A DNA stretch of 59,817 bases, the filler included. It is 5 parts of 5 records of this genome, joined end to end, with 100 filler letters (N's around TTAATTAATTAA, not from the genome) between each part and the next. Parts side by side here need not be neighbours in the genome. Positions count along the whole stretch, not along the records: positions 51,837 to 59,817 come from SRR31156797_15763; 4 more parts are not named here. The stretch is one strand, 5' to 3'. Positions within the stretch are counted from its first letter, which is position 1, and each line of letters begins with the position of its first letter. A model generated the notes under the pieces. It did no database searches, had not been told where the DNA came from, and saw nothing but the letters and a program-made list of their open reading frames with translations. Shown one piece after another: positions 7,332 to 59,817 of this stretch. A program made the position numbers and the translations under genes.

Positions 7332-7441
7332 TGAGTTTAATAAAGGTATTTATATATTAAATAACTTATTGACGTAACAACGAATAAGATAAGTATCAGC
7401 TAATAAACTTATATATTAATATCCTGACCATATACAAAGAG

Positions 7442-7585: not shown

Positions 7586-7613
7586 TGGCAAACATATTAT
7601 TAGTGTATTAGAA

Positions 7614-7997: not shown

Positions 7998-9770
7998 TTG
8001 GAGAAGATGATGAAAGATGGATATATAGTAGACTATATTTCAGGTAATAAAGTAAAAGTTACACCAGAAGAAGTAGAAGCTGTACAAGTATTTTCAGAGA
8101 TTCTAGTTGAAGATTATGGGTACCCTAAAGAATATATAAAAACACATCCACAACACAGAGTCAAAGTTAGACCAAGTGATGTAAACAAGGAGTATCCAAT
8201 TGATATTGGAGTTTTTAATAATGATACAAAATCAGATGACGATATTTATATAGTAGTTGAGTGTAAGAAAAAGACTAGAAAAGATGGACGTAGCCAATTA
8301 GAAGATTATCTTAGATTCTGTAAAGCACAGTTAGGTGTTTGGTTTAATGGTGAAGAAAGATTTTTCTTGCTTAAACAGGAAAAAGATGGTTTAGTTGAGT
8401 TTTTTGAAATACCAAATATTCCAAAATACGGACAAAGACTAGAAGATATTGGTAAGTTTAAAAGGTCTGATTTAAAACCAACACATAATTTGAAAGCTAC
8501 GTTTAAAGCAATTAGGAATCACTTAGCAGCAAATACAGTAGGAGCAACAAGAGATGAAGTTTTGGCTCAACAACTAATAAATATAATCTTTTGTAAGATA
8601 TATGATGAGCGTTTCACTGAACCTGAAAAAATTGTTACATTTAGAGCTGGTTACAATGAAGAACCAAGTAAGGTAAAAGAACGTCTACTAAAGTTATTTG
8701 AAAGAGTAAAAAGAAAGTATAAAGAGGTAATGGATCAAACCGATGCAATTACACTTGATGAAAATAGTATTGTATACGTTATTGGAGAACTTCAAAACTA
8801 TTGTTTAATTGAGGCTGAAAGAGATATGGTAGCTGACGCATTCGAAGTATTCATTGGACATGCGTTAAAAGGTGGACAAGGCCAATTCTTTACTCCTAGA
8901 AATGTTGTTAAAATGATAGTCGATATTCTTGATCCTACAGATGAAGACAATATTATTGACCCATCATGTGGTAGTGGTGGATTCTTAGTTGAATCATTAC
9001 GACATGTATGGAGCAAGCTGGATGAAGAGGGAAAGAAGTATCATTGGAATGCTGCAAATCTTAAAGAAGAAAAAATGGAAGTTGCATTGAATAAAATTTG
9101 CGGAATTGATAAGGACTATTTTTTGTCTAAAGTTGCTAAAGCATATATGGCTATATTAGGTGATGGGAAGAGTGGTATTTTCTGTGAAGATAGCTTGGAA
9201 AATCCCCATAACTGGAATGATAAAACCCGTATTAAAATAAATAAAGGAAAATTTTCTGTATTATTAACTAATCCTCCTTTTGGTTCAAAAATACCAGTAA
9301 GAGGAGAAGAAAAGTTAAAGCAATATGAGTTAGCTCATAAATGGAAATATGATAAGAAAATAAATGAGTGGGTGATGGGTAAGTTGAAAGAGAAAGAATC
9401 ACCTCAAGTACTGTTTATTGAAAGAAACTTAGAATTGTTAGCAGATAAAGGTCGAATGGGCATCGTATTACCAGATGGTGTGTTTGGGAATGATACATTT
9501 GGTTATATTAGAAATTGGTTAAAGAATAAAGGCAGAATTCTTGCGGTAATTGATATACCAATTGAAACTTTTCAGCCCAATACTTCTACAAAAACAACGG
9601 TCTTAATATTTCAAAAGTTACAAGAGAGTGAGATACCTGATGACTATGAAATATTTATGGCAATTGCTGAATCTTGTGGTCATGATAGACGTGGTAATGA
9701 AATAGCCAGTGATGATATTGCAAAAGTATCAGGAGCATATATAGAATGGTTAGCAAAACAGAAGATTTAG
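7998..9770 (+). CDS. Fused restriction endonuclease / N6-adenine methyltransferase (Type IIB/IIG-like RM subunit; real start probably ATG 8007 or 8010)
   Basis: N-terminal HsdR_N-like nuclease motif (IDI..VECKK); GQFFTPR, DPSCGSGGFL (motif I), NPPF (motif IV). Confidence 0.9.
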   Translation: MEKMMKDGYIVDYISGNKVKVTPEEVEAVQVFSEILVEDYGYPKEYIKTHPQHRVKVRPSDVNKEYPIDIGVFNNDTKSDDDIYIVVECKKKTRKDGRSQLEDYLRFCKAQLGVWFNGEERFFLLKQEKDGLVEFFEIPNIPKYGQRLEDIGKFKRSDLKPTHNLKATFKAIRNHLAANTVGATRDEVLAQQLINIIFCKIYDERFTEPEKIVTFRAGYNEEPSKVKERLLKLFERVKRKYKEVMDQTDAITLDENSIVYVIGELQNYCLIEAERDMVADAFEVFIGHALKGGQGQFFTPRNVVKMIVDILDPTDEDNIIDPSCGSGGFLVESLRHVWSKLDEEGKKYHWNAANLKEEKMEVALNKICGIDKDYFLSKVAKAYMAILGDGKSGIFCEDSLENPHNWNDKTRIKINKGKFSVLLTNPPFGSKIPVRGEEKLKQYELAHKWKYDKKINEWVMGKLKEKESPQVLFIERNLELLADKGRMGIVLPDGVFGNDTFGYIRNWLKNKGRILAVIDIPIETFQPNTSTKTTVLIFQKLQESEIPDDYEIFMAIAESCGHDRRGNEIASDDIAKVSGAYIEWLAKQKI

Positions 9771-9782
9771 TGGAGGCATAGT

Positions 9783-11186
9783 ATGAAACAATTCACAATT
9801 AAAAAAAGTGATTTGAAGTTTGGAGACAGGCTTGTACCAACATTTTATTATTATACTAAAGTAGTTATAAATGAATATGTAAAAAAAGGTGTTAGGTATG
9901 CTTGTCTAGGAGATCATTGTAATGTGTCAGATGGAGAACACTCACATATAAGTAGAAATGATAAATCTGGAATAAGATATCTTTACGGCAGAAATATTAA
10001 AGAAGGAGTAATTAACTTCGATCCAATTTCAGATGATTCCTTTATAACAGAAAGTGATTATGACGACAACAAGAGGTGTCATATTAATGAAAATGATGTT
10101 TTAATCGCAATTTATGGTACTATTGGTAAATCAGCAGTATATAAATCAAAATATGTTGGAGTAGCAGGAATACCAAGACATATATCAAATATTACAGTAA
10201 AAGAGAAGGCTGGATTCACACCTGAATATTTGTCTTCTTATTTTAGAAGTAGAGCAGGGAAGTGGCAACTATTTAGTGTTACAACAGGCAACATTCAACA
10301 ACTTCTATCACTAAAAAATATAAGAGCTCTTGATATACCTATTGCAGGAGATTCTTTCATTGATGAAATAACAAAGATAGAAAGGAATGCGATAAACCAT
10401 GAAATTAAAGCTTTGGAGAACATTGAAATAGCAAAAGATCTATTATACAATAACTTAAATTTTGGTATAAAAGATATTACTAGAGATTTTTCTTTTACTG
10501 TTAATAGTGAGGAGTTGTTTTACACTAATTACTGGTCAACTAGTTTTTATGATAAGTTATACATTAAAGTAGCTGACGAATTGGTCTGCAATAATGGAGC
10601 ACTTCAGCTGGGTAAAATCGCATCTGTTCAAAATGGAGATGAAGTAGGAAGTATAAACTATAATGAGTTTATACATAGACATAACGAGGATAAGTCATTT
10701 ATAAGAACATCAGATATTGTGAACTATGAAATGGATCTTTACCCAGACTATTATATTGAAGCAGAGGTTTCAAATGAAATAGTACAAGATATTCAACCTA
10801 GAGATATAGTTTTTACAAAAGATGGGAAAATAGCAAGTGTAGGTATGATAACTGATGAAGATAATGTTATTATTTCATCAGGTATTGCTCGGTTAAGATT
10901 AAAACAAGATGCAATTGATCTTGGTTGGACACAAGAATATTTATTTATTGCTCTGTCTATACCTGAAATTGGAAGATATGCTGCGATAAGAAGAACTGTG
11001 ATTGCTTCAACAATACCTCATTTAAGAGAGGCAAGGTTAAAAGAGATTGAAATACCTATTATTGAGAAAAAGTATGTTGATGAAATCACAAAACTAGTTG
11101 AAGAAGCATTTAGACTTAAAGGAAAAAGAAAAAAACTACTAAAGCAGTCAAACAATATGTTTGAAGAGTATTTCAATTTAACGTAG
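9783..11186 (+). CDS. Restriction-modification specificity (S) subunit with two TRDs
   Basis: Two repeated TRD plus helical units (ND VLIA..GTIG..IPI; RDIVF..DGKI..IPI); GGAGG RBS; follows the RM gene. Confidence 0.85.
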   Translation: MKQFTIKKSDLKFGDRLVPTFYYYTKVVINEYVKKGVRYACLGDHCNVSDGEHSHISRNDKSGIRYLYGRNIKEGVINFDPISDDSFITESDYDDNKRCHINENDVLIAIYGTIGKSAVYKSKYVGVAGIPRHISNITVKEKAGFTPEYLSSYFRSRAGKWQLFSVTTGNIQQLLSLKNIRALDIPIAGDSFIDEITKIERNAINHEIKALENIEIAKDLLYNNLNFGIKDITRDFSFTVNSEELFYTNYWSTSFYDKLYIKVADELVCNNGALQLGKIASVQNGDEVGSINYNEFIHRHNEDKSFIRTSDIVNYEMDLYPDYYIEAEVSNEIVQDIQPRDIVFTKDGKIASVGMITDEDNVIISSGIARLRLKQDAIDLGWTQEYLFIALSIPEIGRYAAIRRTVIASTIPHLREARLKEIEIPIIEKKYVDEITKLVEEAFRLKGKRKKLLKQSNNMFEEYFNLT

Positions 11187-11829: not shown

Positions 11830-11929
11830 NNNNNNNNNNNNNNNNNNNNNNNNNNNNNNNNNNNNNNNNNNNNTTAATTAATTAANNNNNNNNNNNNNNN
11901 NNNNNNNNNNNNNNNNNNNNNNNNNNNNN
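11830..11929. other. Artificial contig spacer
   Basis: N runs flanking TTAATTAATTAA; base composition changes across it. Confidence 0.99.
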
Positions 11930-19709: not shown

Positions 19710-19809
19710 NNNNNNNNNNNNNNNNNNNNNNNNNNNNNNNNNNNNNNNNNNNNTTAATTAATTAANNNNNNNNNNNNNNNNNNNNNNNNNNNNNNNNNNN
19801 NNNNNNNNN
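19710..19809. other. Artificial contig spacer
   Basis: N runs flanking TTAATTAATTAA. Confidence 0.99.
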
Positions 19810-22800
19810 CGATACGATTCGTATGCTGGATCTGTTTATTGAGCCAATGGAGCAAGACACCAGCTTTGTTAGTTTATGTTCAAACGAACTTCCATATAAC
19901 TGGAATGGCAATTCAATCGTTGTTTCCGGCGAATACAACGATACAGTAGCAGGAATTATTGGAATTGGTTGCGACACGGTATTGACTTTATTTGTTGAAA
20001 TACATGAACCTGATACGATTGTTTTAGATACTTCCATTTGTCAGGGGGCACCAACTTTTGCCTGGAATAGCCATACGGTGTTAACAGATGCGGATGGAAC
20101 TTACCTTGACACCCTTACCAATATTCATGGTTGCGATTCCTTCTTAACTCTGAATGTAACCATTATCCCTCCACGCATTACAAACGAGTCGATGGAGCTT
20201 TGCCTCGGAGATCCGGCAGTAGCCTGGAACGGTTATTCGATAGTAAGTACCGTGGATAGCATTTATACCGCAACTTTGACCGATGTCTTTGGTTGTGATT
20301 CAATTGTAAGTATGGATGTAAGCATTTTAATGCCTACATACAGCGATGAATTTATGCAGATTTGTGAGAATGAACCGAATACCAGCTGGAATGGACTAAC
20401 AGTAGTTAGTGATAGGGACAGTGTTTATAATACCACATTGGTGAATGCGGTAGGCTGTGATTCAATCCTCACTTTAACGGTTGAATCCCTACCAATCAGC
20501 GAGTTTGAGATAGATACCATTTTATGCGTTGGAGCTCCTGGCTTTGTGTGGAACGGGTTATCTGTTTCAACGATAATTGATGATACCTACCAGACAACAC
20601 TAACTAATTCAGTTGGTTGCGACTCCATTGTTACACTTGACGTAACCCTGGTACCAACAGATACAACAATAGTTGATACAAGTATTTGCGAAGGGGAGCC
20701 TGCCTTTGTATGGGAAGGCCTGACTATAGAAACGTTATTTGACAGTACCTATGAAGCACGTTTAACTAATCAATATGGTTGTGATTCGATACTTAATCTG
20801 GAAGTAAGAATCCTTCCTTCAACTGATACCCTTATCGATACAATCTTATGTTACGGTACTCCGGCTTACGCATGGAACAATCGGGTAATAATATCTGATT
20901 TTGATAGTACTTATCTTGATACTTTAGTAAATGCTGCAGGATGTGATTCCTTATTAACCCTGAATGTAAACATCGTTTATCCTGACACGGTGAACATAGA
21001 TACTACTATTTGTGAAGGTGAACCGATATTTGCCTGGGGGGTGAACACCGTCCATCAGGTTGATTCCTATATCGACAGTAGCTATACCGACATTCAGCAA
21101 AATCGTTTTGGCTGCGACTCAGTTATTTATTTGAATGTGGATATTCTTCGCCCTGCTTACGATCTGGATACAGTGTCGCTTTGTGAAAATGAGGCCTCGT
21201 ATGCCTGGTATAGTCACACCATTTTACCTGACAGGGATAGCATCTACTACGATACACTTTATTATGCAGCCGGCTGTGATTCGCTTCGTTTGCAACTGGA
21301 AGTGATTTCATTACCTGTATCTGATACCATTATGGATACTACCATTTGCGAAGGTAGTCCGGCATTTGTATGGAACAGCCATACCATTTCTTCTTTCACC
21401 GATGGTGTATATCGCGATACATTAACCAACGTTTGGGGTTGCGATTCAACCTTAACTTTAAATGTATTTATTACCCCAACATATAAAGACACTACCAGCC
21501 TCGATATTTGCTTCAATGATCCACCGGTTATCTGGTATGGTCAGACACTAAGTTCGGTTAACGATAGCATGTACATGGCATCCTTGTCAACTGCGGTTGG
21601 TTGCGATTCGTTGTTATTCCTTGATGTAACCATTCTTCCGGTGAGCGATACGGTGATCGATACCTTAATTTGCGAAGACGAACCAACGTTTGTATGGAAC
21701 GGAAATACAGTACAAACCCAAAACGACAGCAGTTACTTTGCAACATTAACCAATGTTTATGGTTGCGACTCGAGTCTGACTTTAAATGTTGAAATTTTAA
21801 GAAAATCGTACAGCTTCACTATCGATACCATTTACGATACAGATGCCCCTTATGCCTGGAACGATTCCTTGTACTATGTGGGTGGAGTTTATGTGGATAC
21901 CCTTATCAATGCTGTAGGATGCGATTCTGTTTTAACGCTCGATCTTACCATAATTGGTCTGGTTATTACCGAAGTATACGATACCATTTGTGCACCTGAC
22001 GGGCCTTATGCCTGGAACGGTAACCTTTATGATACTAGCGGAATGTATGCTGATACTTTATCACGAGCTGGTGGAGGTGATTCCATTGTTAACTTATATC
22101 TGACAATTTTTGAAGAAACATACAGCACACTCGATACCTTGATATGTGCTACCGATGCACCGTTTATTTGGCAGTCGACTCCTTATAGCTCGAGTGGAAC
22201 TTACTACGATACGATACCTAACGCGGTAGGTTGCGATTCCTTATTAACGCTTAACCTGACCATTATTGACGGTGTATTAAGAGATACTTTTGTGGAAGCT
22301 TGCGAAGAATATACATGGCTTGAAGGAACAGGAATTACTTATACCAGCTCGGGAACTTACGATTACCTGACTGGAAATGTGGTTTGTTCAGATACCTTCC
22401 GGTTGCACTTGCTGATTAGTCCACCAATACTATTGTCCGACTCAACCGTTGATGTTTTGTGTTACGGAGATAGTACGGGTTCCATCGATCTTTCCATTTC
22501 CGGAGGAATTGAACCATTTAAAATTACCTGGAATACGGGAGATACAACTGACGATCTTTCGAACTTACCGGCTGGAATCTATTCAGTTTGGGTAAGCGAT
22601 TCATTGGGTTGTAGCGATAGCCTCGAAGTAGAAATACTACAACCGGATTCACTGATGATTTCGGAAACTCATATTGATCTGGGAAATACTTTAGATCCAA
22701 TTGGAAGCATTGATCTTACCATCACCGGAGGTACTGCACCATACGACATCCTATGGAGTAATGGTGAAACCTCAGAAGATCTTTTCAATTTGCCAGCTGG

Positions 22801-25800
22801 TAATTACACTGTAATTGTTAACGATGCTAATAACTGTCCGGCAACATTAACAGTAACATTAACCTCAGATCTTAAAGGATACATGGATTGTTTAGAGGAC
22901 ACCATATTTAGCTGTTATGAAGATTTGAATGGTTACTCAATGTATACTTCATTAACGGCGTATCTTGATACACTGAGGAACATTTACAGCGACTGTGGAG
23001 TGGATACAAGTACCTTTACTGCTGTTGATTCGGTAGTGAGTGCCAGTATTTATTGTTACGAAGAATTGCGTACATACAGCGTAACCGATTCATGTGGAGA
23101 TGAGATTACCTGTGTACAGCGTGTAATTGTAGATGACCAAGAGGCTCCTGTAATTACCTGTCCTCCAACAATAGTGATTACCAACGATGTAGTACCAGGT
23201 GCTTATGCCGATACCTTGGAATTTATTGCTGCAGGAGGACTGTTTAATGATAATTGTGGTGTGGTAAGTTTTACATTTGTGGGTGAAACGTCTGATGGAG
23301 GTTCCGATCCTGAAACAATTACCCGCACCTATGAAGTGGTTGATTATTGTGGAAATACATCAACATGTACACAGCAAATAGAACTATATCTGAGTGCAGA
23401 ATTTACAATCGACTGTAGCGGATTGCCTTCTGAGAATTTTGAGTGTGTTGGCGATTTGCCTCGATACATAACACTCGAAGAGTTCAGGAATGCTGGCGGA
23501 TATGCTTTTAGTTATCCATTTAATATTACCGACTTTGATGTAACCGATGATATTGGAAGTAATCGTTGTCCTGAAGTTGTTATTTATACTTACACAATTA
23601 CCAATTCGAACGGCGAAACTGCAAGTTGTACACAGCGTTTTGAAGTGAATGATGAAACACCACCAACTTTAATATTGCCAGACAAACACATTTACTGTAA
23701 CGAAAGCTGGCCTACTTATTCAAATTACGTTGACGTTTTACAATTCCAAACATCGCATGGTAACGATGCATTTGATAATTGTGGTAACAGGTCTATTCGT
23801 TTTGTGAGCTTGCTGAGTTATAGTGAGTCAGGTAGTTGTCCGGTAGTTCAGGAAAGAGTTTATCGAATTGAGGATTGGTGTGGTAATCGTTCAGAAGAAA
23901 CTGAATTGGTTTATGTGCACGATACCGTTCCTCCGGTTGTAACCAATTTCCCAACCGAAATTACAGCCGATTGTGAGGTTCCAACACCAATTGCTGATGC
24001 CTCGCTATATGCTTCTGATGATTGTGCTACCGTTGAATTAACTTACCGCGATTCTTTGGCAGGATCCGACGAACCTGGTGTAGTATATCGTTTCTATACC
24101 TTTACAGATGGTTGTAATCCGGTTGAGGTAGTTCAGAAAATAACTATTGTGTTAACCGAAGTTCCGGAACTGGCTGCTGTCGCTCCAATTTGTCAGTTTA
24201 GTACCGTTCCGGCGTTGCCAACAACCTCATTAAATGGTATTACCGGAACATGGATTCCTGACAGCATTTTATCTGATGTACCAGGAACGTTTGATTATAT
24301 TTTCTATCCGGACTCAGGACAATGTGCGGGACCTGCTGCTTTAAGTATTGTTGTTGTTCCTGCTATAGAGTTAAGTGAAACACACATTGATCAGGCCTAT
24401 AATCCTAATCCGGTTGGAAGTATTGACCTTGAGATCTTTGGTGGTGCAAGTCCATATGATATAACCTGGACTGGCCCGAATGGTATTAATGAATCCATAG
24501 AAGATCTTTATAATCTGCCTGCTGGACAGTATCGGGTAGAAGTTAGTGATTCTGCAGGCTGTTATGATAGTCTTACGGTTACCTTAGTTGCAAGCTTGCC
24601 AGAATTTAGCTGTCCTCCGGATACTTTAATTGAATGCCCGGATATTACAGCATATGCTGCCTTTGATAATATCAGCGACTTTATTGCGGGTGGAGGATAT
24701 TATAATCCGGTTGACATTGTGGCCGATTTGTATAGTTTCGACGATACGGTCTCCAGCGAACATTGTTTAAGCATAGATCGGACATATGTGGTTCAGGATA
24801 TTTATGGAAGAGTAGACTCTTGCACCCAAAGAATTGATTTCTTCGATTTAATTCCTCCGGTAATAACCTGTATGGCAGATACAAGTTCAGAATGTTTATC
24901 GGATGTGGTAGCTGATATTGAGACTTATGCTGATTTTGTTGCTGCCGGTGGTAGTGCAACAGATAACTGTGGTATCGATCCAGAATCATTCTGGTTTAAC
25001 CAAACTAGCAATAGAACAATAAATACAACTGAAATAATAACTGTCTACGGTATTGCCGATAAGTGTGGAAATCTGGATTCCTGTGTTCAGGTAATTATCT
25101 TAACCGATACTATTCCTCCGGAAGCAATTTGTAACAGTATTACTGTTCAATTGGATGATGAAGGACGATATGTATTAACCGACATCGATATGCGGACTAT
25201 TTCGCAAGGTTCGAACGATAATTGTACTGCCGAAGAAGACCTGATCATTGAAATAGACGAAGTAGAGTTTACTTGCGAAGATGTAGAAGAAGGTAGGTTG
25301 GTGAATGTTGTAGTAACCGACGAAGCTGGAAATTCAACCGTTTGTATGGCAGAAATCAGTGTTGAAGATATGGTGCCACCAACAGCAATTTGTCAAAACA
25401 TTACTGTTTATCTCGATGAAACCGGAGTGGTATTTATCGATCCTTCTATGATTAATAACGGATCTTTCGACAATTGTAAGATTGAGGCTATGCAACTTTC
25501 ACGTAACCGTTTTGACTGTTTTGATGTAGGTGAAAACCTTGTTGAGTTGTACGTTATTGATCTTTACGATTTACGAGATACCTGTGAAGCGATTGTAACT
25601 GTTATTGACCCTGTGGATCCTTATATCTCTTGCCTTCCGAAACAAACCATTCAGCTGGATGAATACGGCAAACTTGCATTGAGTTGGGATATGGTTACTG
25701 ATAGTGTTTCAGATGCTTGTGGTATTGATACGATATTACTGGATCAATATGAATTGGATTGTGATAACATTGGAACAACCTTTATAACGGCTACTGCTTA

Positions 25801-27406
25801 CGATGTAAATGGTAATTCAAGTTCTTGTACGGCAGAATTTGAGATATATGGAAATGTGCCGCCAAATGTGATAAACGACTCGGCAGTAACAGCAATGAAT
25901 GTTGCCATTGATATTCCGGTAACTAATAACGATTACGATCTGAAGACGAATATTAATTTATCAACTCTTGGTGTTGTAATTGATCCAAGTCATGGTTTTG
26001 TTATGGTGAACAATGAAACAGGTGTTGTAACCTATACTCCGGAGCAGGATTACGTAGGTCCGGATATTTTCAGATATATTATTTATGATGACGGTATTCC
26101 ATGTGAACCTATGCCAGGTGAAGCTATTGTATTTATTACTGTTCGTCCGGCTAACGATCCACCGGTAGCAGTTGATGATTACTTTGAGGTACCATGTGGC
26201 GACTTGTTTGGAAGTGTAATTCTAAATGATTCTGATCCGGATGGTGATGAGATATCAGTTAATCCGATACCGGTTACACCACCTGACAGTGGCATGCTAA
26301 CTTTGTACTCGAATGGTAACTTTGAATACATACCTTTCGAAGGATTCTTTGGTACCGATAGTTTCCAATATGTAATCTGTGATAATGGTATTCCGTCGCT
26401 TTGTGATACGGCCTGGGTGTATATTACGCGTGTACCGGATAATGATTGTGATGGAATAGCCGATGTTGATGACATTGATGATGATAATGATGGAATTCTT
26501 GATGTTGTTGAGGGAGATCGGGCTATCGATTCCGACCACGATGGTATCCCGGATAGTTACGATATCGATTCTGATAATGACGGCATTCCGGATAATATCG
26601 AGGGTCAGGGAGAACACAACTACATTCCTCCAACAGGAAGAGATGGCAATGGAAATGGATGGGATGATGCTTACGATCCTGAAAACGGAGGCTATCCATT
26701 TACTCCGGAAGATACTGATGGTGATTCGATGCCAGACTACCTGGATATTGATTCTGATAATGATGGAGTATTCGACTTGATTGAAGGACACGATGACGAT
26801 AACAACGGTATTGCAGATGTTCTGAGATGGTACAGCGATGAAGACCAGGATGGATTGGATGATGCGTATGATACTTATTCCGGTTGGGCTGACTATGGTA
26901 ACGAAACTGCCAGCAATGCTCCACTTCAGGACTTTGATGGAGATGGAACCCGTGATTGGCGCGACACCAACGACGAAGATGATGAATACCAAACAGTTGA
27001 TGAGGATCTGAATGGTGACGGTGATTATAGTAATGACGACCTTGATTTGGATGGTTATCCTGAATATTTAGATACAGAAATGGATTGTGAGTTGTTTATA
27101 CCGGAAGGATTCTCACCAAACGATGATGGTGTTCACGACTTCTTCCAGATTCTTTGTATCCAAAAGTATCCGAATGCCAAGTTGATGATTTTCAACAGAA
27201 ATGGTATTAAACTTTGGGAGAAAGAACATTACGGTAACCTCGATGTTTGGGGAACCTACGAAGATGCCTGGTGGTGGGGTAACACCGAACATACCCTTAC
27301 AATTGGTAGATCTGGAGGATTACCAGCTGGTAACTATATTTATGTACTCATCTTAAACGATGGATTGGGTACTGTGAAGAATGGTACGGTAATGTTGGCA
27401 TACTAA
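19810..27406 (+). CDS. Giant repetitive surface protein with T9SS type-B (gliding-motility-associated) C-terminal domain, 5' truncated
   Basis: About 15 tandem repeats with C..W..GCDS, SprB-like repeats (GSIDL..GG..PY..W), HYR-like and Ig-like units, Asp-rich DxDxDG repeats, C-terminal IPEGFSPNDDG..LPAGNYIY. Confidence 0.9.
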
Positions 27407-34699: not shown

Positions 34700-34799
34700 N
34701 NNNNNNNNNNNNNNNNNNNNNNNNNNNNNNNNNNNNNNNNNNNTTAATTAATTAANNNNNNNNNNNNNNNNNNNNNNNNNNNNNNNNNNNNNNNNNNNN
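34700..34799. other. Artificial contig spacer
   Basis: N runs flanking TTAATTAATTAA. Confidence 0.99.
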
Positions 34800-51736: not shown

Positions 51737-51836
51737 NNNNNNNNNNNNNNNNNNNNNNNNNNNNNNNNNNNNNNNNNNNNTTAATTAATTAANNNNNNNN
51801 NNNNNNNNNNNNNNNNNNNNNNNNNNNNNNNNNNNN
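51737..51836. other. Artificial contig spacer
   Basis: N runs flanking TTAATTAATTAA. Confidence 0.99.
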
Positions 51837-52208
51837 GGGGTCCCCGGCAATCAACGCCAGGACCGGGTCGAGCTCAAACCGGAACGCTTTTCTGCCAAAG
51901 GGATAGAGCTCCACCAGAAAGAGATCGGGCCGTTCCGTCAGGAAAAGCCGTTCCAGGATCTGTTGACGCTCTTTTTTGACATCTTTCACCCTTTTGCCCG
52001 GATCAACGCTGTAAAGTCCGTTGAACCCTTCATCCATCATCAATCCCGGCAGTTGCACCTGCCGCACATGGCCGGGAAGCTGCGCCGGAAGGGAATCCCC
52101 CCCGGTCACCAGGAGGATGTCGTGGGCATCCAGGGCCTTGACGATCTCCAGGGTTCGGAAAAAATGTCCCACACCCAGCACATGCTGGCAATAGACGATG
52201 ATCTTCAT
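51837..52208 (-). CDS. GT-B glycosyltransferase (GT28-like), 3' truncated
   Basis: YCQHVLGVGHFFR, VELYPFGRKAFRFEL. Confidence 0.85.
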
Positions 52209-52816
52209 TTTTCCTCCTGATTCAGGTTGACGGCGTTCAGTTGTTCCAGGACCAGGCCGTTATCCCAGGTGAATTTGTGCAGATATCCCTGCCGGATCAC
52301 CCCTTTCTCTTCGGGCAGGAACGCCCTGCCAAGGGCATGATAGGCAAGGGCTTTGATCACGCCGTTGTGGGTGACCACAAGGATGCGGCGGTCTTTGAAC
52401 CGGACGGCCGCCGCCTCCAGGGCTGAAAGGGAGCGGTCCAGCACGCCATGGCGGGCCTCGCCGCCGGGGGGGCAGAAGTCCCAGCCCAGGCGCTCCTGAA
52501 ACGCCACGGTGCCGGGGGCCGTCCGGCGCAGATCCTGGAGCCGTTTGCCCTGCCAGCGCCCAAAGGCCTGTTCCCGCAGCTTTTCCTCCGTCATCACCTC
52601 CAGGCCAAGGTGCCGGCCGATGATTTCCGCCGTGGCCCTGGCCCGGGCCAGGGGGCTTGAGAGGATAAGGTCCAGGGGGATCGTTCCAAGGACGGCGCAC
52701 CAGGACGCCACCTCCAGCCGTCCCTGGGCGGACAGGGGAAGATCCGCTTCCCCCTGGAGGCGCTTCTCAAGGTTCCACCGGGTCTTGCCATGTCGTATCA
52801 GGTTGAAGCTAACCAT
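52205..52816 (-). CDS. Histidine phosphatase (phosphoglycerate mutase family)
   Basis: LIRHGKTRWN, SSPLARA, VVTHNG. Confidence 0.93.
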   Translation of the reverse strand: MVSFNLIRHGKTRWNLEKRLQGEADLPLSAQGRLEVASWCAVLGTIPLDLILSSPLARARATAEIIGRHLGLEVMTEEKLREQAFGRWQGKRLQDLRRTAPGTVAFQERLGWDFCPPGGEARHGVLDRSLSALEAAAVRFKDRRILVVTHNGVIKALAYHALGRAFLPEEKGVIRQGYLHKFTWDNGLVLEQLNAVNLNQEEK

Positions 52817-53924
52817 TCAAAACCACCTTTTTCAATATTGCCTCCAGATGGAGATAATTGCGGTCAAGGTCGTGGCGCTGCCGGATGTAGGCAGCGGCCC
52901 TCTCTCCCATCCCGGATCGAAGGCCCTTGTCCCGTATCAGCCGTGCCAGGGCGTTGACAAAGGCGGATTCCCGGAACAGGGGAACGAGCAGGCCTGTCTT
53001 GCCATTGTCCACCACCTCGGGAATGCCGCCGTTGTCAAAGGCGACCACGGGCAGGGAACAGGATTGGGCCTCCAGGAAAACCATGCCCAGGGATTCCCGG
53101 ATGCCGGGAAACGCGAACAGATCTCCCGCACTGTAAAAGCGGTACATCTCTTTTCGCTCGATCCTGCCCACAAACCGGTAACGGCCCGGGATGCAGCGTT
53201 CGGCCAGGGCCCGCAATTCTTTTTCCATGGGACCGCTGCCCGCGATCACCAGGAGGAATGGCACATCCGTCCGGGCAAGCTTGGCGCAGCATTGGATGAG
53301 CCAGGCCAGCCCCCGGCTTTTGACATCATTTCTGAACATGGCCGCCGTCAGGATCACCGGTATCGACCCGGCTCCCCATTGGCGCCGTAAGGCAGCGCCC
53401 TCCCGGCCGCTTCGCCGGAACTCCCCGGGATAGATGCCCGGGGCGATATGGGAGAGCCTGTGTTCCGGGAGCAGCCGTTTCAGATTCTTAAGATCTTCAA
53501 GCTTGTTGGTGATCACATGGTCCGCCCGGACCAGGGAGGCCCGGTTCAGGAGAAAGCCGGGCAGGGTCTTGGGGCGTCGGCGCCGCTTTGTGGAATAGAT
53601 GCCCTGGAAGATCACATACTTGATGCCGAGCACCCTGCACACCCAGGGACCCAGCAGATCCGGGGCCTTGTAATAGGCGTGGTAGGTCAGCCAGAGGTCC
53701 GGGGGGGAGGCGGCAAGGGTCCTCACCGACCTCACAAAATCCCGGATCAGCCCGGGCCAGAGCCAGGGCCGGTGGGTGATCCACCGGGCCCGAACCCGGC
53801 CCTGGACCGTGACGTCATGGCCCCGGCCCTCGAGGAAGGCCACGATGCCGCCCGCAATGACCAGATCCCCGGAGGGGGTGCCATGGCCCAGGGGCTTGAA
53901 CGGGGCGTAAAAGGCGATTTTCAT
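52809..53924 (-). CDS. Glycosyltransferase family 4
   Basis: FYAPFKP..PSGD, ESLGMVFLEAQ (E-X7-E). Confidence 0.92.
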   Translation of the reverse strand: MKIAFYAPFKPLGHGTPSGDLVIAGGIVAFLEGRGHDVTVQGRVRARWITHRPWLWPGLIRDFVRSVRTLAASPPDLWLTYHAYYKAPDLLGPWVCRVLGIKYVIFQGIYSTKRRRRPKTLPGFLLNRASLVRADHVITNKLEDLKNLKRLLPEHRLSHIAPGIYPGEFRRSGREGAALRRQWGAGSIPVILTAAMFRNDVKSRGLAWLIQCCAKLARTDVPFLLVIAGSGPMEKELRALAERCIPGRYRFVGRIERKEMYRFYSAGDLFAFPGIRESLGMVFLEAQSCSLPVVAFDNGGIPEVVDNGKTGLLVPLFRESAFVNALARLIRDKGLRSGMGERAAAYIRQRHDLDRNYLHLEAILKKVVLNG

Positions 53925-55189
53925 CCCTGTCCGATCTCCGGAATCATGGCCTTGTAGGTACGGGCAAGTTCCCTGACCAATCTCTTGTTATCAAAATCCC
54001 GCTCCACCCGTTTTCGTGCCTCCCGTGTCACCCGCCTGCGAAGCGCCTCATCCGTCAGCAGTGTCTCCATGGCGTCGGCCAGCTTTGCCGGGTTCTTGGG
54101 CGGCACCATCCGCCCTGTGACACCGTCCTCCAGGAACTCCGGCAAACCGGACACATCGGTTGCCACCACGGGAAGATTCATGGCCATGCTCTCGGCCATG
54201 ACATTGGGAATGCCGTCCCTGTCCCCGTTCCTGGCGATCTGGCATCCCAGGACAAAGAGATCCGATTCCGCGTAATGGGAGATCACCTCTTCATGGGTCA
54301 GGGTGCCGCAGAGCCGGGTCGTGTCGCCAAGTGCCAGCTCGTTGATCAGGTCCAGGATCTTCTCTCGGTCGTCCCCTTCGCCGATGAGGGTGTGCCTGAA
54401 ATCGATTCCCCGGTCCCTCAGGATGGCCAGGGCCCGGTAAACCGTTTCAAGGCCCTTTTTTTCCGTGATCCGTGCCACGGTGATGATCCTGTAGGGGGGA
54501 ACCGCGGACAGGCGCTTTCCGTCCGAAGAGAAATAGTCCAGGTTGATCCCGTGGTAGACGCAGAAGAGAGGGGTGGTGCTTGCGGCCGAGAGCGTGGAGA
54601 GATATCGCTGGTTGTACCGGGTGCAGGTCACGACAAAGCGCGCCATGTCGATCTTCTCCCTCAGCTGCCTTGTGTCCGAGGTGTAGATATCCTTTGCATG
54701 GGCAAAGAAACTGAAGGGCAGCCCGGTCAAGAGGCTGGCAAACATGGCCACCGAGGTGGGGGAGTGGGCAAAGTGGGCATGGAAATGAACGATGCCCTTT
54801 CCCGGCAAAAACCGATGGACCAGGACCCCTGCCTGGAGCAGATGCTTCACGGTGGCCGACCGCCGGGTCCTGAACCACCGCTGCACCGCTTTTTTCATGG
54901 CCTTGAAGTAGGGCCGGGGCCGTTTCAGGGCCAGCAGCAGGTTGTGGTACAAAAGCATATGCAGATGGGGCAGGATGCTGGAGGGAAGATAATCCACCCC
55001 GGCCCGGATCGCCTTGACGCTGGCATGGGTGAACGGCTCCCGGGGATGCCGCATGGAGATGATGTGAATCCTGTACCCAAGGGATTCAAGAATAAGTATT
55101 TCGTTGGAGATAAAGGTTTCCGATATCCTGGGATATCCTTTCAAAACCATACAAAGGGTCGCTGGTGATCTGTTTTCCGCTGTTTTCAT
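53921..55189 (-). CDS. Glycosyltransferase family 4 (WcaL-like)
   Basis: KGYPRISETFI, HFHAHFAH, DRDGIPNVMAESMA. Confidence 0.92.
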   Translation of the reverse strand: MKTAENRSPATLCMVLKGYPRISETFISNEILILESLGYRIHIISMRHPREPFTHASVKAIRAGVDYLPSSILPHLHMLLYHNLLLALKRPRPYFKAMKKAVQRWFRTRRSATVKHLLQAGVLVHRFLPGKGIVHFHAHFAHSPTSVAMFASLLTGLPFSFFAHAKDIYTSDTRQLREKIDMARFVVTCTRYNQRYLSTLSAASTTPLFCVYHGINLDYFSSDGKRLSAVPPYRIITVARITEKKGLETVYRALAILRDRGIDFRHTLIGEGDDREKILDLINELALGDTTRLCGTLTHEEVISHYAESDLFVLGCQIARNGDRDGIPNVMAESMAMNLPVVATDVSGLPEFLEDGVTGRMVPPKNPAKLADAMETLLTDEALRRRVTREARKRVERDFDNKRLVRELARTYKAMIPEIGQG

Positions 55190-56411
55190 CTTTTTCGCTC
55201 CTGAATATCGATATCCGTTTACTGATCGCATCTGTTCCCGTCATCCTGAAATGGTCCATGGCCTCTTGAAACGGCTTTTGAAAAGCCAGCATCTCGCCGA
55301 TTTTCTCCTTCAACCCTGCCGGATTCACCCGGCTCCAGGCAATGTAGTCGAGAAGATGACACCCCTTCATGGCCCTTGCCCGGATGAGCTGCTCCTGCCT
55401 CGGGGTCTCCCGGGGAATCACCAAAGCAAGGGTCTTCTGGGAAAGGAGTTCGCATACGGTGTTGTAGCCCCCCATGGAGATGACAAGGTCCGAGGCCGAA
55501 ATGAGCACCTCCATATCCGTGACAAAGCGCCACACCGTTACGCCAAGGTCCCTGGCGCGCCTTTCTATGGCCCCATGGTCCTTCCGGGAGAGAAAGGGGC
55601 CGGTAACCATCAGGCTTTTAAAGGAGGAAGGGGCGTTCGCCGCCTTCATCCCCTCGAGCATGGTAAGGAAAGCATCCAGCACATGGAAACCGTCCCCTCC
55701 CCCGCCCGTGGTCACGGAGACAAGGTGCTCATGGTCGGCCATCCCAAGTTTCCTTCTCATTTCAACGACCCGGGATGCCGGGGGCCGGTTTCGTGAAATG
55801 TATCCGGTGAAACGCACTTTTTCGGCAATGTCCGGAGGGATTGCATACTCCTTCACCGGATCGTACAGCGCCTTGTCCCCGTACACCCAGACTTCGCTGT
55901 AGAGCTGCTGAATGGCCGAATAGACCCCCTTTGTTTGCCAGTCCGTCCGAACGGTCCCGGCATCGTCCATCACATCCCTCAGCCCCAGCACCGTTCTGCA
56001 CGTTTTTAAATGGCGCTGCATCCATTCCAGGGTCGGCATCACTTCCTGTTTCAGGCCCAGGGGCTCCTTGTCCACGATAAAGAGATCCGGCTTAAACGTG
56101 GCCGCGGTGGCCAGGATGATATTCTTCCTGATCTCCATGGCATGCCCGGAATCGATTTTGATGGACAAAGGCGCGTAGTCGTCATTGCCCTTCTTGATCA
56201 TGCCCGGGATGCGCACAAAATCCACAAACCCGGGTAACTTGAACCTGCCTGCCAGGGGAGAGCCGGTCAGGATCAGGATATTGGTCCCGGGCCGGCTCAG
56301 GTGGCCGGCAATGGCCAGGGTCCGCCGTATGTGCCCAAGGCCGTATGTATCGTGGGAATACATGAGGATATTGAACGTCGGTTTCGCTTCCATGGGCCGC
56401 TTTCTATTCAT
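55086..56411 (-). CDS. GT-B glycosyltransferase (GT28-like)
   Basis: YSHDTYGLGHIRR, TTGGGGDG, SMGGYNT, PRQEQLIRA; start overlaps the cytochrome stop. Confidence 0.9.
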   Translation of the reverse strand: MNRKRPMEAKPTFNILMYSHDTYGLGHIRRTLAIAGHLSRPGTNILILTGSPLAGRFKLPGFVDFVRIPGMIKKGNDDYAPLSIKIDSGHAMEIRKNIILATAATFKPDLFIVDKEPLGLKQEVMPTLEWMQRHLKTCRTVLGLRDVMDDAGTVRTDWQTKGVYSAIQQLYSEVWVYGDKALYDPVKEYAIPPDIAEKVRFTGYISRNRPPASRVVEMRRKLGMADHEHLVSVTTGGGGDGFHVLDAFLTMLEGMKAANAPSSFKSLMVTGPFLSRKDHGAIERRARDLGVTVWRFVTDMEVLISASDLVISMGGYNTVCELLSQKTLALVIPRETPRQEQLIRARAMKGCHLLDYIAWSRVNPAGLKEKIGEMLAFQKPFQEAMDHFRMTGTDAISKRISIFRSEKDENSGKQITSDPLYGFERISQDIGNLYLQRNTYS

Positions 56412-57789
56412 GGTTAAACCGTCCTCCCGTGTCCGCCGGATCCCCATCATATCCCAGGGCCTTGAAATCGATCACCCCGGCGGGCCGGTGGCAATCCAGG
56501 CAGGACAGGGCCGCCTCCTTTGGAACCACCCCATGGTTCAGGCGCCAGTACATGGATGTCATGGCAAAATCGACCTTGCCGCTGAACTTGAGTCCCGCCG
56601 CCTTCATGCCCTTTTCCGCCGCTGTTTTCCAGTCCCGGGTGGCAAGGAAACCGTCCGGCCCGATCAAATGGGGAACAATAAGGGTCCGGTTTTCAGGGTC
56701 CATTGCCTGGCGGCTCTTCACCACCTTGTAGGGGGTGATCTTTGCCAACGGGTCCTTGATGCCGCCCTCGGGCGGGTTCAGCTCGGTGACGCCGCCGGAT
56801 GCGATGGGATCGCCCTTGAGATATCTGCGGTGTTTTCCATTATACCAGGCATAGGACGGCCGTAAATTCCTTTCTTTGATGGACAGGCCCAGCTTACTAT
56901 ACATCTCTATCCGATTTTCATTTTTTTTCAAGACCTTGATTGTGCCATCGCCCCTGGAGTTGTCCCTGTATGTCAACGTATGCTTTTTTTTCGCAAAGGT
57001 TGGAATATGACAGGTCTGGCACGCAATGGCACTGCAATGGTCATTCAGCTGTCCCAACAGCGGGGCGGAGCTGTCATGGGGATTTTCATCATGACAATCG
57101 ATGCAGGATACAACGCCCTCGCTCACCGATGAGGTTGTGCTGCTGCCCGCGATCCTGTGCCGATCCGTGGTATGGCACTCCTGGCAGGTAAAATCCTCCC
57201 CTCCCATATGGACATCAAAGGCGGCGGAAGGATTCAGCAATTCGCTGCTGAGGTCGCCATGCTTGATGTTGTCACCGCCTCCGCCATACCAGTGGCAGGT
57301 GCCGCAATTGGCTCTTCCGGGGGATCCCACATTCCTGGCGATTTCCCCAAGGTCAATCCCTTTATCCGGATACCCGCATCGATTCTTTTTCTTGGCATAT
57401 TTCCCGGTGGTATCATGGCAGATGAGGCAATCGACATTGGCCATATCCGTAAAATCAAACGATTCGTCCTTCCAGCCATAACCGGCATGGCATTTGGTGC
57501 ACCCGCACCAATTGGATTCAATGCTCACTCAGTAGTCGTTCATCAGATTTATCTTGCCCAGATCGGCCCGGTTCTCATGGCCTTTCAAAAACGGCGTCTC
57601 CCCCTTCCAGCGCCAATGGGCTGTTTTCATGAAATCCCGGCCCTCCTTGGCATGGCATTCCACGCATTGCCGGGTCACCTCCCGGGCATCGGCATAGGAT
57701 GCTTTCATCAATTTAGAGTGATCCTCCCGGCCATGGGACGGAGCGCTGAACAACATAAGAACCGCCAAAACACAGATTGTCCGAATCAT
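56404..57789 (-). CDS. Octaheme tetrathionate reductase (Otr)-family cytochrome c, 461 aa, with in-frame UGA at codon 87 (probable selenocysteine)
   Basis: AAGGAGG RBS, signal peptide, eight CxxCH motifs across the two in-frame ORFs; HWRW..GK..NDY-UGA..SN..CTKCHAGYGW matches the Otr pattern. Confidence 0.88.
57490..57531 (-). promoter_or_regulatory. UGA plus bacterial SECIS-like stem-loop
   Basis: Minus strand TGA GTGAGCATTGAATCCAA TTGGTGC-GGGT-GCACCAA ATGC: 7-bp stem, G-rich loop 25-28 nt after UGA, extra GCAT/ATGC pairing. Confidence 0.75.
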
Positions 57790-57881
57790 GATACCTCCTT
57801 TTGCGGCATTCCCCTGGCACAGAACAATGCCGCTTCTTTCGTTTAAAGACCGGTCTGTACCGCCATCGTCATTCTCTCCAT

Positions 57882-57897
57882 AGCAGGATTCGTGCCA
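57882..57897 (-). promoter_or_regulatory. Sigma54 (-24/-12) promoter for the cytochrome/glycosyltransferase operon
   Basis: TGGCACGAATCCTGCT versus consensus TGGCACG-N4-TTGCW. Confidence 0.75.
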
Positions 57898-58009
57898 TCC
57901 GGATATTCTTTGATCGCTTTGCCGTTTCATGGGGGGCAGATTCCTTTGGAATGGGGTATAGGCGATGGCAGATGTTTGGATCTCCCTCCCCGTGTCGTTC
58001 TGTTTGTTG

Positions 58010-58053
58010 CGTTACTGAGCGTTACTAAACGTTACGTAACGTTAGGTTGCGTT
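58010..58053. promoter_or_regulatory. Five CGTT motifs at 10-bp phasing containing a perfect 16-bp palindrome (candidate activator binding site)
   Basis: CGTT at 58010, 58020, 58030, 58040, 58050; AACGTTACGTAACGTT at 58028-58043. Confidence 0.6.
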
Positions 58054-58138
58054 GTGCCTCCGGGCCTGGGAAGCTGTTTGAGCGGGTGCAGGGAGGATAA
58101 TTGCACCTATATAAGGCGCCAATCGGCTTTTTAGTGTG

Positions 58139-58154
58139 TGGCATCAATATTGCT
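58139..58154 (+). promoter_or_regulatory. Sigma54 (-24/-12) promoter for the DUF1638 gene
   Basis: TGGCATCAATATTGCT, correct GG-N10-GC spacing. Confidence 0.7.
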
Positions 58155-58232
58155 AATCGTTGGATCAAGAGGCCCATGGCATGGTTTTGTCATATGCTTA
58201 TTCTCAATAACTTAAAGGAGGGCTGTTTTACA

Positions 58233-58886
58233 ATGGGTAAACGATCTTTTTCAGATACGGCTATTGTGGCCTGCGGCACCATGGGGCTTGAGATCCATCA
58301 CCTGAGAGCGGAGGGCTTTCTGGATACGGATCATCTTTTTTTCACCACCCCGGGGCTTCACCAGGATATCCGGGTCCTGGAGAAGCAGCTGGTGGCCAGG
58401 ATCGGAAAGGCGAAAGTCGTTGCCAATGGGGTGATCGTGGTTTACGGAGGCAAGTTTTGCTATGTGAACCCGGATAATCCGACACGGCTCATGAAGCACA
58501 TTATTGAAGAGCAGGGGCCTAAGGTGACAAGGGTTAACGCGACCCATTGCATGGGGATGCTGGCCACGGAGCAGGAGATGAAAATGATTGCCGATGTTGT
58601 TTCAGGCGGAGAACCGGTCTGGTGGATGACACCGGGGTGGGTGAAATACAGGAAACAGGTGTTCAAGGGATGGGACAAAGGGGTGGCCAACGAGAATTTT
58701 CCGAGGCATACCGGTGGTGCCGTCGTTCTTGATGGCATCGGCTACCTTGATCGCTACATGGCTGAGGACCCCGAGGGATTCCTTGAATATTGCGACTGGA
58801 TGGGGATTTCCATGCAGGCTTATCCCATCACCCTTGACCGGTTCAAGGGACTGCTGGTCGAAGCGTTAAATAATTTGAATGGTTGA
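58233..58886 (+). CDS. DUF1638 domain-containing protein
   Basis: IVACG..E, PGLH, VVYG..C, HC, WMTPGW pattern; AAGGAGG RBS. Confidence 0.75.
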   Translation: MGKRSFSDTAIVACGTMGLEIHHLRAEGFLDTDHLFFTTPGLHQDIRVLEKQLVARIGKAKVVANGVIVVYGGKFCYVNPDNPTRLMKHIIEEQGPKVTRVNATHCMGMLATEQEMKMIADVVSGGEPVWWMTPGWVKYRKQVFKGWDKGVANENFPRHTGGAVVLDGIGYLDRYMAEDPEGFLEYCDWMGISMQAYPITLDRFKGLLVEALNNLNG

Positions 58887-58902
58887 TTAGGAGAACTGTT
58901 AG

Positions 58903-59817
58903 ATGAAAAGAAAGGTTGTACTGGCGCATGATTCAGGTTTGGGACATAAAATCTCCATGGGAATGGGGTATTTCAAGAAAACAATGAAGGTCGGTTTCTG
59001 GATCTTGGGCCTGGTGGGCGTTTTTCTCGCTTTCGCACCTGCCTCGGTGAAAGCTGGGGTCTCTTTGCTGGATAAAGGGGGCTTTAAGGCCGACCTCTCC
59101 CTGGAGATGGCTGCCGGCGTATTCGCCATCCAGAACGCCCATTGGGGGGATCCGGAAGAGAACAAAGGGTATGCTGACGGGTATATTAAACCGGTCGTGA
59201 ATGTCTCCTATGATCTTGGCAATGCGGGAAGCCTTTACGGAGGACTCAGCTATGCCGCTTCTTTCAGCTATGGTGATGACGGCGGCTGGGGAATGTGGGA
59301 AGGTGATACCGAGGAGATCGAATCTGAGCAAGCCTATATCGGATGGAAATCAGGGACGTTGTTCAGCTCCTTGGGAAGGGATTTCCTGGATATCTCTTTG
59401 GGTGAACAGGAGTTTCAAATCGGCGATGGTTTTTTACTCTATGACGGAGAATCCGACGGCCGGTACGGCGCTTTCTGGACCGCCCCCCACAAGTCGTTTG
59501 ATTTTTCCGCCATTGTTCGCCTGAACGCCAGGCCGGTCCGGGCCGATCTCTTCTATCTTGAGACGGACAAGGACAAGGACAACACGGATCTTTACGGTGT
59601 CAATATTGAGTATATCAACGAAACCCTCGGTACTGTCGGTGCAACATGGATGTTGATCAGCGATGTTGACAAGGATGGTTCAGGCGGATATGGCAGCCGT
59701 GACGGCATGAATGTCTACAGCATCCGGGGACAAGGTTCCCCCCTGGCTTCCCTGGGCCTTGAGAATCTTTTTCTCTCCTTTGAGTATGCCCTGGAAACAG
59801 ATGGCGACCGTGTTGAA
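58903..59817 (+). CDS. Outer-membrane beta-barrel (alginate export/AlgE-like), runs off the window end; absent from the ORF track
   Basis: AGGAG RBS, open frame to the end; signal peptide; EQAYIGWKSG..DISLGEQEFQIGDGFLLYDG and alternating beta-strand pattern. Confidence 0.7.
   Translation, partial: MKRKVVLAHDSGLGHKISMGMGYFKKTMKVGFWILGLVGVFLAFAPASVKAGVSLLDKGGFKADLSLEMAAGVFAIQNAHWGDPEENKGYADGYIKPVVNVSYDLGNAGSLYGGLSYAASFSYGDDGGWGMWEGDTEEIESEQAYIGWKSGTLFSSLGRDFLDISLGEQEFQIGDGFLLYDGESDGRYGAFWTAPHKSFDFSAIVRLNARPVRADLFYLETDKDKDNTDLYGVNIEYINETLGTVGATWMLISDVDKDGSGGYGSRDGMNVYSIRGQGSPLASLGLENLFLSFEYALETDGDRVE

Follow-up and report, generated by a model that had tools for sequence, protein, structure and literature searches.

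A probable selenocysteine-containing member of the octaheme tetrathionate reductase family, encoded across an in-frame UGA codon followed by a candidate SECIS hairpin

The window, i.e., the whole stretch of 59,817 nucleotides of DNA that was analysed, carries in its last piece (from record SRR31156797_15763) a minus-strand gene for an octaheme cytochrome c of the octaheme tetrathionate reductase (Otr) family, in whose 461-codon frame a single in-frame TGA occurs. The comparison with homologues indicates that this UGA very probably encodes selenocysteine (Sec87), in place of a cysteine that is invariant in the rest of the family. The window consists of five pieces joined by four 100-nt linkers (11830-11929, 19710-19809, 34700-34799 and 51737-51836), each composed of 44 N, TTAATTAATTAA and 44 N; the GC content of the pieces in order is 0.31, 0.57, 0.39, 0.44 and 0.57, and their gene content differs, also taxonomically. 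Because the window is an artificial concatenation, the genomic context of the Otr gene is limited to the last piece (51837..59817, 7,981 nt). (Note that any open reading frame (ORF) spanning a linker is an artefact, 51789..52208 being one example.)

The original prediction had joined two ORFs, separated by the TGA only, into an exported protein of 461 residues with exactly eight CxxCH motifs, and all of these elements were found again at their positions (Table 1). When TGA is translated as U, the motifs start at residues 42, 97, 121, 162, 202, 229, 257 and 430, which places one motif before the TGA and seven after it. The distance of eight codons from the lysine of the LGK motif (Lys79) to the TGA, also part of the prediction, was read directly from the sequence. 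The ATG at the beginning of the long frame is preceded by a Shine-Dalgarno-like sequence, and no motif comparable to AGGAGG was seen before the GTG at 57528, which is the start that gene callers would take.

The gene product is a full-length member of the Otr family. A scan of NCBIfam gave TIGR04315 with a score of 485 bits (cut-off 375), covering positions 2-440 of the 440 positions of the profile and residues 23-447 of the protein; TIGR04314 and TIGR03153 were the only other matches at E<=0.01. The octahaem cytochrome of Shewanella oneidensis (OTR, 1sp3_A) was matched with an E-value of 5.1e-120 and an identity of about 43%, all eight CxxCH motifs being aligned with motifs of 1sp3. An AlphaFold2 model based on an alignment of 93 rows had a mean pLDDT of 91.8 and a pTM of 0.89, and its sole PDB hit in Foldseek at E<=0.001 was again 1sp3 (E 1.1e-44, TM 0.85/0.90, rmsd 2.3 A), so that profile, sequence and model agree with the family named in the original prediction.

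In the HMMER alignment to 1sp3_A, Lys79 corresponds to residue 56 and U87 to residue 64, within the motif GKKNSINNFC. The column of Lys79 was Lys in 71/71 rows covering the position in alignment A2, which includes 70 full-length Cys-type homologues. The numbering Lys56/Cys64 given in the original prediction matches this alignment. Tetrathionate, nitrite and hydroxylamine are named as substrates of Shewanella OTR in the titles of the original papers. Cys64 of that enzyme is presumably an active-site cysteine near catalytic haem 2, and Lys56 is reported to be the unusual axial ligand of that haem (Mowat et al. 2004).

The nature of the TGA was addressed by comparison with other members of the family. 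The column occupied by the TGA was Cys in 70/70 of the full-length homologues in alignment A2. A scan of the GTDB species genomes gave at least 79 Otr loci; 82 sites, i.e., those of the matches listed and that of the window, were compared, and all counts given below for the genome set refer to these matches. TGA was present at seven sites and TGC or TGT at the remaining 75 (42 TGC and 29 TGT at 71 of them, and likewise one of these two codons at the other four). The six relatives closest to the window gene among the matches listed (L001-L006) all have the TGA and, with the window gene, make up the seven sites; they are from six species-level genomes, namely metagenome-assembled genomes (MAGs) of Desulfobacterium, Desulfobacterales and Desulfatiglandales, and strain NaphS2. 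Their proteins are 54-65% identical to the window protein. In each gene the TGA is the only one in frame, the number of CxxCH motifs is eight, and a hydrophobic start resembling a signal peptide lies in the same frame upstream of the TGA. Sec in the place of the family cysteine, as inferred in the original prediction, is supported by the sites compared, and two checks that the prediction had named, the pairing of Cys codons with UGA in homologues and the recurrence of the same UGA in relatives, came out in its favour.

Regarding the part of the frame that precedes the TGA, nucleotide identity among the seven genes at the first, second and third codon positions was 0.62/0.72/0.42 upstream and 0.70/0.77/0.45 downstream of the TGA. 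Both sides show the same coding signature, which means that the region before the TGA, too, is translated in this frame. In a maximum-likelihood tree of 82 proteins (those of the listed loci and that of the window) the seven TGA rows formed one clade with an SH-aLRT support of 100, and one change on the tree suffices for the trait. The clade was placed among Cys-type rows, five nodes below the midpoint root (the root itself is not established); the node that connects it with its nearest Cys-type neighbours had a low support (34). With that qualification of the root, the position of the clade fits a change from Cys to Sec. The members of the clade are referred to below as Sec-type.

The TGA has left a clear trace in protein databases. 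The best 120 hits in a database of 5.8 billion proteins were examined for length and coverage: all 45 hits with an identity of at least 56% were truncated at the N-terminus (345-392 aa, coverage 73-81%), and the remaining 75 hits, with identities of 43-49%, had a coverage of 92-100%. Among 42 truncated proteins in a further alignment (A1), 23 start at residue 88, i.e., at the codon directly following the TGA, two at residue 90 and 17 later. Since the close relatives are all truncated, and more than half of those aligned begin at residue 88, gene callers truncate the genes of this clade systematically at the TGA; the original prediction had expected the gene to be split by standard annotation. 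Several of the truncated relatives bear NCBI names. As deposited, these proteins are devoid of the signal peptide, haem 1 and the Lys ligand, and, because the database relatives are truncated, metabolic reconstructions of Desulfobacterales-type genomes miss or misdescribe the Sec-type Otr.

UGA at an invariant Cys column, together with a nearby hairpin that has a G in its loop, is the classical signature of Sec. The original prediction had described a stem of 7 bp with a GGGT loop at +25 to +28 after the TGA, which was confirmed in the sequence: the arms are TTGGTGC (+18 to +24) and GCACCAA (+29 to +35), the core hairpin extends over 57511..57494, and RNAalifold added two outer pairs (57514/57491 and 57513/57492). 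The loop lies within what we take to be the range of the bSECISearch model (16-37 nt). In 7/7 Sec-type genes the pattern (U/C)UGGUGC-loop-GCACCA(A/G) occurs at a constant distance from the UGA, with GGGU, AGUU or AGGU as the loop. The pairwise codon identity at invariant residues was 0.83 in residues 92-98 and 0.50 over 154 columns (permutation p ~0.002), and the top five sliding windows of codon identity were all located in the stretch from residue 82 to residue 103. In 7/7 genes the same codon was used for Cys95, and likewise for Cys97 and for Thr98; overall, such complete identity was found in 5/18 invariant Cys columns and 1/8 invariant Thr columns. The mean minimum free energy of 30-nt segments was -11.2 kcal/mol for the Sec-type genes (n=7) versus -6.0 kcal/mol (sd 3.3) for the Cys-type genes listed (n=71). 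The hairpin is probably a selenocysteine insertion sequence (SECIS), an assignment for which conservation and synonymous constraint speak and which draws neither on thermodynamics nor on covariation.

Several observations weigh against the assignment of Sec. When folded alone, the hairpin of the window had a z-score of -0.74, and 42/200 shuffled sequences folded at least as well. There is one compensatory pair only (U-A to C-G, in the closely related L004 and L005), L006 breaks this same pair, and the covariation score of the seven sequences was not significant, being matched by 68/500 shuffles. Hairpins at least as stable as the weakest one of Sec type were formed at 6/71 of the Cys-type sites listed. 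No Rfam family was found at its gathering score, and a chance snoRNA hit was all that was obtained near the site at E<=10. Regarding the machinery for Sec, ARAGORN detected no tRNA anywhere in the window, whose five unrelated pieces are silent on the genome as a whole, and no selA, selB or selD was found among 44 window ORFs scanned against Pfam and NCBIfam, the piece of 7,981 nt being equally silent on its genome. Neither was Sec machinery found among 41 neighbouring ORFs in about 6 kb around the genes of L001-L006, and a literature search gave no direct statement about Sec machinery in NaphS2. Taken together with the comparative evidence, Sec encoded by UGA in this Otr-family cytochrome is regarded as very probable, with a residue of doubt because the Sec machinery is not within reach of a piece of 7,981 nt and because the statistics of the hairpin on its own are weak.

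The six Cys-type genes with stable hairpins are L016, L011, L013, L054, L049 and L033, with values down to -16.4 kcal/mol. Such hairpins arise because the codons for Asn-Trp and Thr-Ser are partly complementary, and the region following the Cys codon may have been predisposed to become a SECIS.

The Sec-type proteins have two cysteines that the Cys-type proteins do not have. Cys95 was present in 22/22 Sec-type rows, in 24/24 truncated relatives covering the site and in 7/7 Sec-type genes of the genome set, versus 0/70 Cys-type rows, which mostly have Pro there, and 0/75 Cys-type genes of the genome set. Cys138 was present in 23/23 Sec-type rows versus 0/70 Cys-type rows, where Ala is found, and in 7/7 versus 0/75 genes of the genome set. 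Trp167 (Phe in 70/70 Cys-type rows, Phe144 in 1sp3) and His320 are likewise specific to the Sec clade, as are Ser220, Leu245 and Tyr354 in the genome set.

Cys95 is part of the hairpin. The 5' arm corresponds to Trp94-Cys95 (UGG UGC) and the 3' arm to the end of Cys97, Thr98 and the base that opens the following codon, with UGC of codon 95 pairing with GCA of Cys97-Thr98. Cys97 and Thr98, which belong to the haem-2 motif, are near-invariant across the family, and Trp94 is common as well; because these codons were already conserved, a change of the Pro95 codon to UGC completes a perfect stem. Cys95 may accordingly be a mere by-product of the hairpin, with Sec inserted into an enzyme whose Otr chemistry is otherwise ordinary, Sec acting as a slightly better nucleophile and forming no pair with Cys. 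This explanation, to which somewhat less than an even chance is given, draws on the sufficiency of the one codon change and on the identity of codons 95, 97 and 98 in all seven genes, but it does not account for Cys138, W167 and H320, which the hairpin cannot explain (Cys138 is encoded about 150 nt past it), and some Cys-type genes form equally stable hairpins without Cys95, so that the hairpin does not strictly depend on this residue. The original prediction had attributed the atypical residues WCG before the haem-2 motif to the constraint of the hairpin. This is plausible inasmuch as the codons of Trp94-Cys95 pair with those of Cys97-Thr98 and all of these codons are identical in 7/7 genes, and it does not extend to Cys138, which lies outside the hairpin. 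All of these traits changed on one branch; their association is thus one evolutionary event and no statistical proof.

A role of the extra cysteines at the protein level is, judging from the sequences, equally plausible. Two added thiols in the Sec clade invite the reading that Sec and Cys form a redox pair. The Sec-type Otr could then represent a distinct subtype, in which Sec87 would form a selenenylsulfide with Cys95 and/or Cys138 next to the Lys-ligated haem, in a pocket reshaped by Trp167 and His320, and which would act as a reductase of chalcogen bonds; this proposal is a tentative one and rather unlikely to hold in full. If the proposal is true, polysulfide, thiosulfate, tetrathionate or selenite would be the substrates, in sulfate reducers, and one substitution of Pro by Cys would have made both the SECIS and the partner thiol.

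Regarding alternatives to Sec itself, decoding of the UGA as one of the standard amino acids, with Cys or Trp supplied by a near-cognate tRNA or through a reassigned code, is improbable. Such a reading profits from the fact that Sec machinery is not demonstrated and from the weak statistics of the single hairpin. TGA is, however, the ordinary stop of four neighbour genes on the same piece, and UGA is therefore not globally reassigned; read-through would be leaky and inefficient for a respiratory enzyme, and would leave the conservation throughout the clade unexplained. The combination of UGA at an invariant Cys column with a nearby G-loop hairpin is, as stated above, the signature of Sec. The relatives moreover belong to the Thermodesulfobacteriota, a phylum that is among the organisms richest in selenoproteins according to a 2026 review (PMC13188914), in a table of which TIGR04315 appears among the selenoprotein families as "GenBank annotated", the motif being given as '-' and no study being cited.

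A truly split gene, in which a monohaem N-terminal peptide of 86 residues and a heptahaem protein of 374 residues would assemble, is still less probable. The GTG directly after the TGA does open an ORF of 374 aa, and databases hold many truncated predictions of this kind. The larger part would nevertheless have seven CxxCH motifs with neither a signal peptide nor a Shine-Dalgarno motif, and attachment of c-type haem requires export. The lysine of haem 2 would be on a different chain from haem 2 itself, the break would fall exactly at the invariant Cys column and not at a domain boundary, and it would be followed by a conserved hairpin with fixed synonymous sites. Finally, a genuine stop, be it a nonsense mutation, a pseudogene or an assembly error in a Cys-type Otr gene, would need no more than one change of TGC or TGT to TGA, and gene callers do treat TGA as a stop, but this reading is close to refuted by the TGA at the same column in six more species-level genomes with frames intact on both sides, by the 23/42 closest database proteins that begin right after it, by the coding-type constraint upstream, and by the depth of the single clade to which all TGA genes belong.

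The preferred reading, a Sec-type Otr, suggests the following course of events. SelB carrying Sec-tRNA(Sec) would bind the hairpin 18-35 nt downstream while the ribosome is positioned on the UGA, and Sec would be inserted; the codons of the hairpin (Trp94-Cys95-x-Cys97-Thr98) would at the same time overlap the attachment motif of haem 2. The product would be a periplasmic octaheme cytochrome with Sec87 in place of the invariant Cys, eight residues past the haem-2 lysine, and its selenolate could serve as the nucleophile or handle the leaving group beside haem 2. The enzyme would reductively cleave bonds of the type S-S or S-SO3, or chalcogen bonds related to these, as in tetrathionate, thiosulfate or polysulfide, selenium oxyanions or nitrite possibly being substrates too, and Cys95 and/or Cys138 are candidates for the resolving thiol of a selenenylsulfide. 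Two results speak against this chemistry: scans of the neighbourhoods revealed no partner gene or redox partner common to the seven Sec-type loci, and the literature search on a catalytic role of OTR Cys64 found just citations of Mowat et al. 2004. Electrons might come from periplasmic cytochromes of the c3 type and pass through the remaining seven haems, which gains some support because Cys-type relatives carry a fused class III cytochrome c (c3) domain: PF02085 was found N-terminally fused to Cys-type Otr, at residues 118-208 of P0079 and P0050, and in the tree of the listed loci some of the Cys-type neighbours nearest to the Sec clade are such fusions. Fused forms, of 712-764 aa, are P0079, P0050 and P0074 from Desulfatibacillum-like bacteria; the corresponding loci among the matches listed are L007-L009, L013, L014, L016, L025 and L065.

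Table 1. Location of the Otr-family gene, its elements and other features along the window
Feature	Position	Strand	Remark
Sec-type Otr-family octaheme cytochrome c, complete coding sequence	56404..57789	minus	461 aa with UGA read as Sec (very probable)
Start codon ATG	57789..57787	minus	
Stop codon TAG	56406..56404	minus	
Shine-Dalgarno-like AGGAGG	57794..57799	minus	4 nt upstream of ATG 57789
Signal-peptide-like N-terminus MIRTICVLAVLMLFSAPSHG	57730..57789	minus	hydrophobic; judged by eye
Lys79 codon (LGK)	57553..57555	minus	aligned with Lys56 of 1sp3 (HMMER)
In-frame TGA, codon 87, proposed Sec87	57529..57531	minus	aligned with Cys64 of 1sp3
Proposed SECIS hairpin	57491..57514	minus	7-bp stem, 57511..57505 with 57500..57494; loop GGGU, 57504..57501
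Cys95 codon UGC	57505..57507	minus	makes the three apical pairs of the hairpin; clade-specific extra cysteine
Haem-2 motif CTKCH, residues 97-101	57487..57501	minus	the five bases following the first U contribute to the 3' arm
Cys138 codon	57376..57378	minus	second clade-specific cysteine, outside the hairpin; Ala115 in 1sp3 (HMMER alignment)
Trp167 codon	57291-57289	minus	clade-specific residue
His320 codon	56832-56830	minus	clade-specific residue
Glycosyltransferase-like gene	55086..56411	minus	downstream of the Otr gene; PF04101, E 4.5e-10
DUF1638 protein gene	58101-58886	plus	divergent from the Otr gene
ORF with the appearance of an outer-membrane beta-barrel	58903-59817	plus	divergent, runs off the end; signal-peptide-like start, Gly/Asp/Tyr-rich
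TniQ-domain genes (two)	170-1723, 1763-3607		
TnsA-like gene	3583-4254		
TnsB-like rve/Mu-transposase gene	4247-6424		
TniB/TnsC-like ATPase gene	6429-7331		
Type I restriction-modification M and S subunit genes	7998-9770, 9783-11186		after the Tn7-like module

The candidate ATG of the glycosyltransferase-like gene at 56411 overlaps the stop of the Otr gene (ATGAATAG, 56411..56404), and the two genes are probably co-transcribed; the arrangement is not shared by L001-L006. The ORF beginning at 58903 had no family hit even at E<=1. A DESULF_POR1 porin adjoins the gene of L001, but a link to porins was dropped, the ORF of the window not being homologous to it. Two of the Sec-type loci, L004 (NaphS2, 6650-9965) and L005 (Desulfatiglandales, 6982-9992), have two co-oriented genes upstream, one for a CDF cation-efflux transporter and one for an ABC substrate-binding protein of the peptide/nickel type, a pair that does not occur at the other Sec-type loci. 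Two Otr paralogues a few kb apart were observed in L053 (sites near 8412 and 10214; a Desulfuromonadales MAG) and in L054 (sites near 5341 and 10235; an Anaerolineales MAG).

The other pieces of the window gave two side observations. The first piece (170-11186, GC 0.31) contains a Tn7-like transposition module with an unusual gene order. On the third piece (19823-27406) a protein of 2,527 aa is encoded that has SprB repeats, cadherin-like and Big_9 domains and a CHU_C type IX secretion signal, features that mark it as a gliding or adhesin protein of the Bacteroidota type.

Compared with the OTR of S. oneidensis (1sp3), the window protein has the same family and fold and likewise eight CxxCH motifs, and the lysine of GK and the motif NNF(C/U) occur in it at the same spacing; it differs in that Cys64 is replaced by the UGA codon, Pro72 by Cys95, Ala115 by Cys138 and Phe144 by Trp167. 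The host lineage, too, is sulfate-reducer-like and not Shewanella, the closest relatives among the matches listed being from the Desulfobacterales, the Desulfatiglandales and NaphS2. Because a Cys-type structure exists (1sp3), the Sec-type Otr is structurally tractable, and it could help to settle the real function of Otr enzymes in sulfur-cycling anaerobes.

The candidate SECIS resembles the classical bacterial element (of the E. coli fdhF type) in being a hairpin within the coding sequence just past the UGA with a small G(U) loop, whereas its stem is short (7 bp, or 9 bp with the outer pairs) and shows no evident bulged U. It starts 18 nt after the UGA, compared with a distance that we take to be 11 nt in fdhF. 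If the hairpin is a SECIS, its position over a haem-attachment motif would place constraints from RNA and protein on the same codons.

Sec forms of TIGR04315 are already recognised in GenBank and in one table row of a review (PMC13188914), which cites no study of this kind of protein; that row was all that a literature search for a Sec-type Otr returned. The GenBank-annotated Sec form WP_331457571.1, compared through this table row alone, is like the window protein in belonging to TIGR04315 and in having one Sec per protein. In the literature searched, neither the position of Sec nor the SECIS of the Sec-type Otr was found described, nor were its clade and the signature residues. The existence of such a protein would be no surprise to a specialist in selenoproteomes, yet it is a good and timely target, as multihaem selenoenzymes have only just been characterised and MccSep (2026) was the sole example found in the literature searched.

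MccSep of Geobacter sulfurreducens (GSU2937-2936) is described as a periplasmic pentahaem selenoprotein acting as a polysulfide reductase. Its one Sec, located by the catalytic haem, works together with a Cys that ligates a haem, and a SECIS-like hairpin is found no further than about 30 nt from the UGA; homologues are of Sec and Cys type, their distribution is in the Desulfobacterota, and MccSep showed no activity on tetrathionate, thiosulfate or nitrite (PMC13510729). The window protein had no hit to the MccSep/ExtKL model in the NCBIfam scan (E<=0.01), and membership in that group was ruled out by its eight haems and by the three models of other families that alone were matched. The two are alike in being periplasmic multihaem cytochromes c with one Sec (very probable in the window protein), a hairpin near the UGA and a candidate partner Cys, whereas MccSep has five haems, forms a tetramer, has a His/Cys-ligated catalytic haem and carries its Sec close to the C-terminus, and Otr has eight haems with Lys ligation. 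MccSep is thus at most a functional analogue of the Sec-type Otr. An octahaem reductase with Lys ligation and with Sec in the place of its active-site Cys would be the second example of a multihaem selenoenzyme and, should the tentative pairing of Sec87 with a cysteine hold, a second independent invention of the MccSep-like chemistry of Sec, Cys and haem on another multihaem scaffold.

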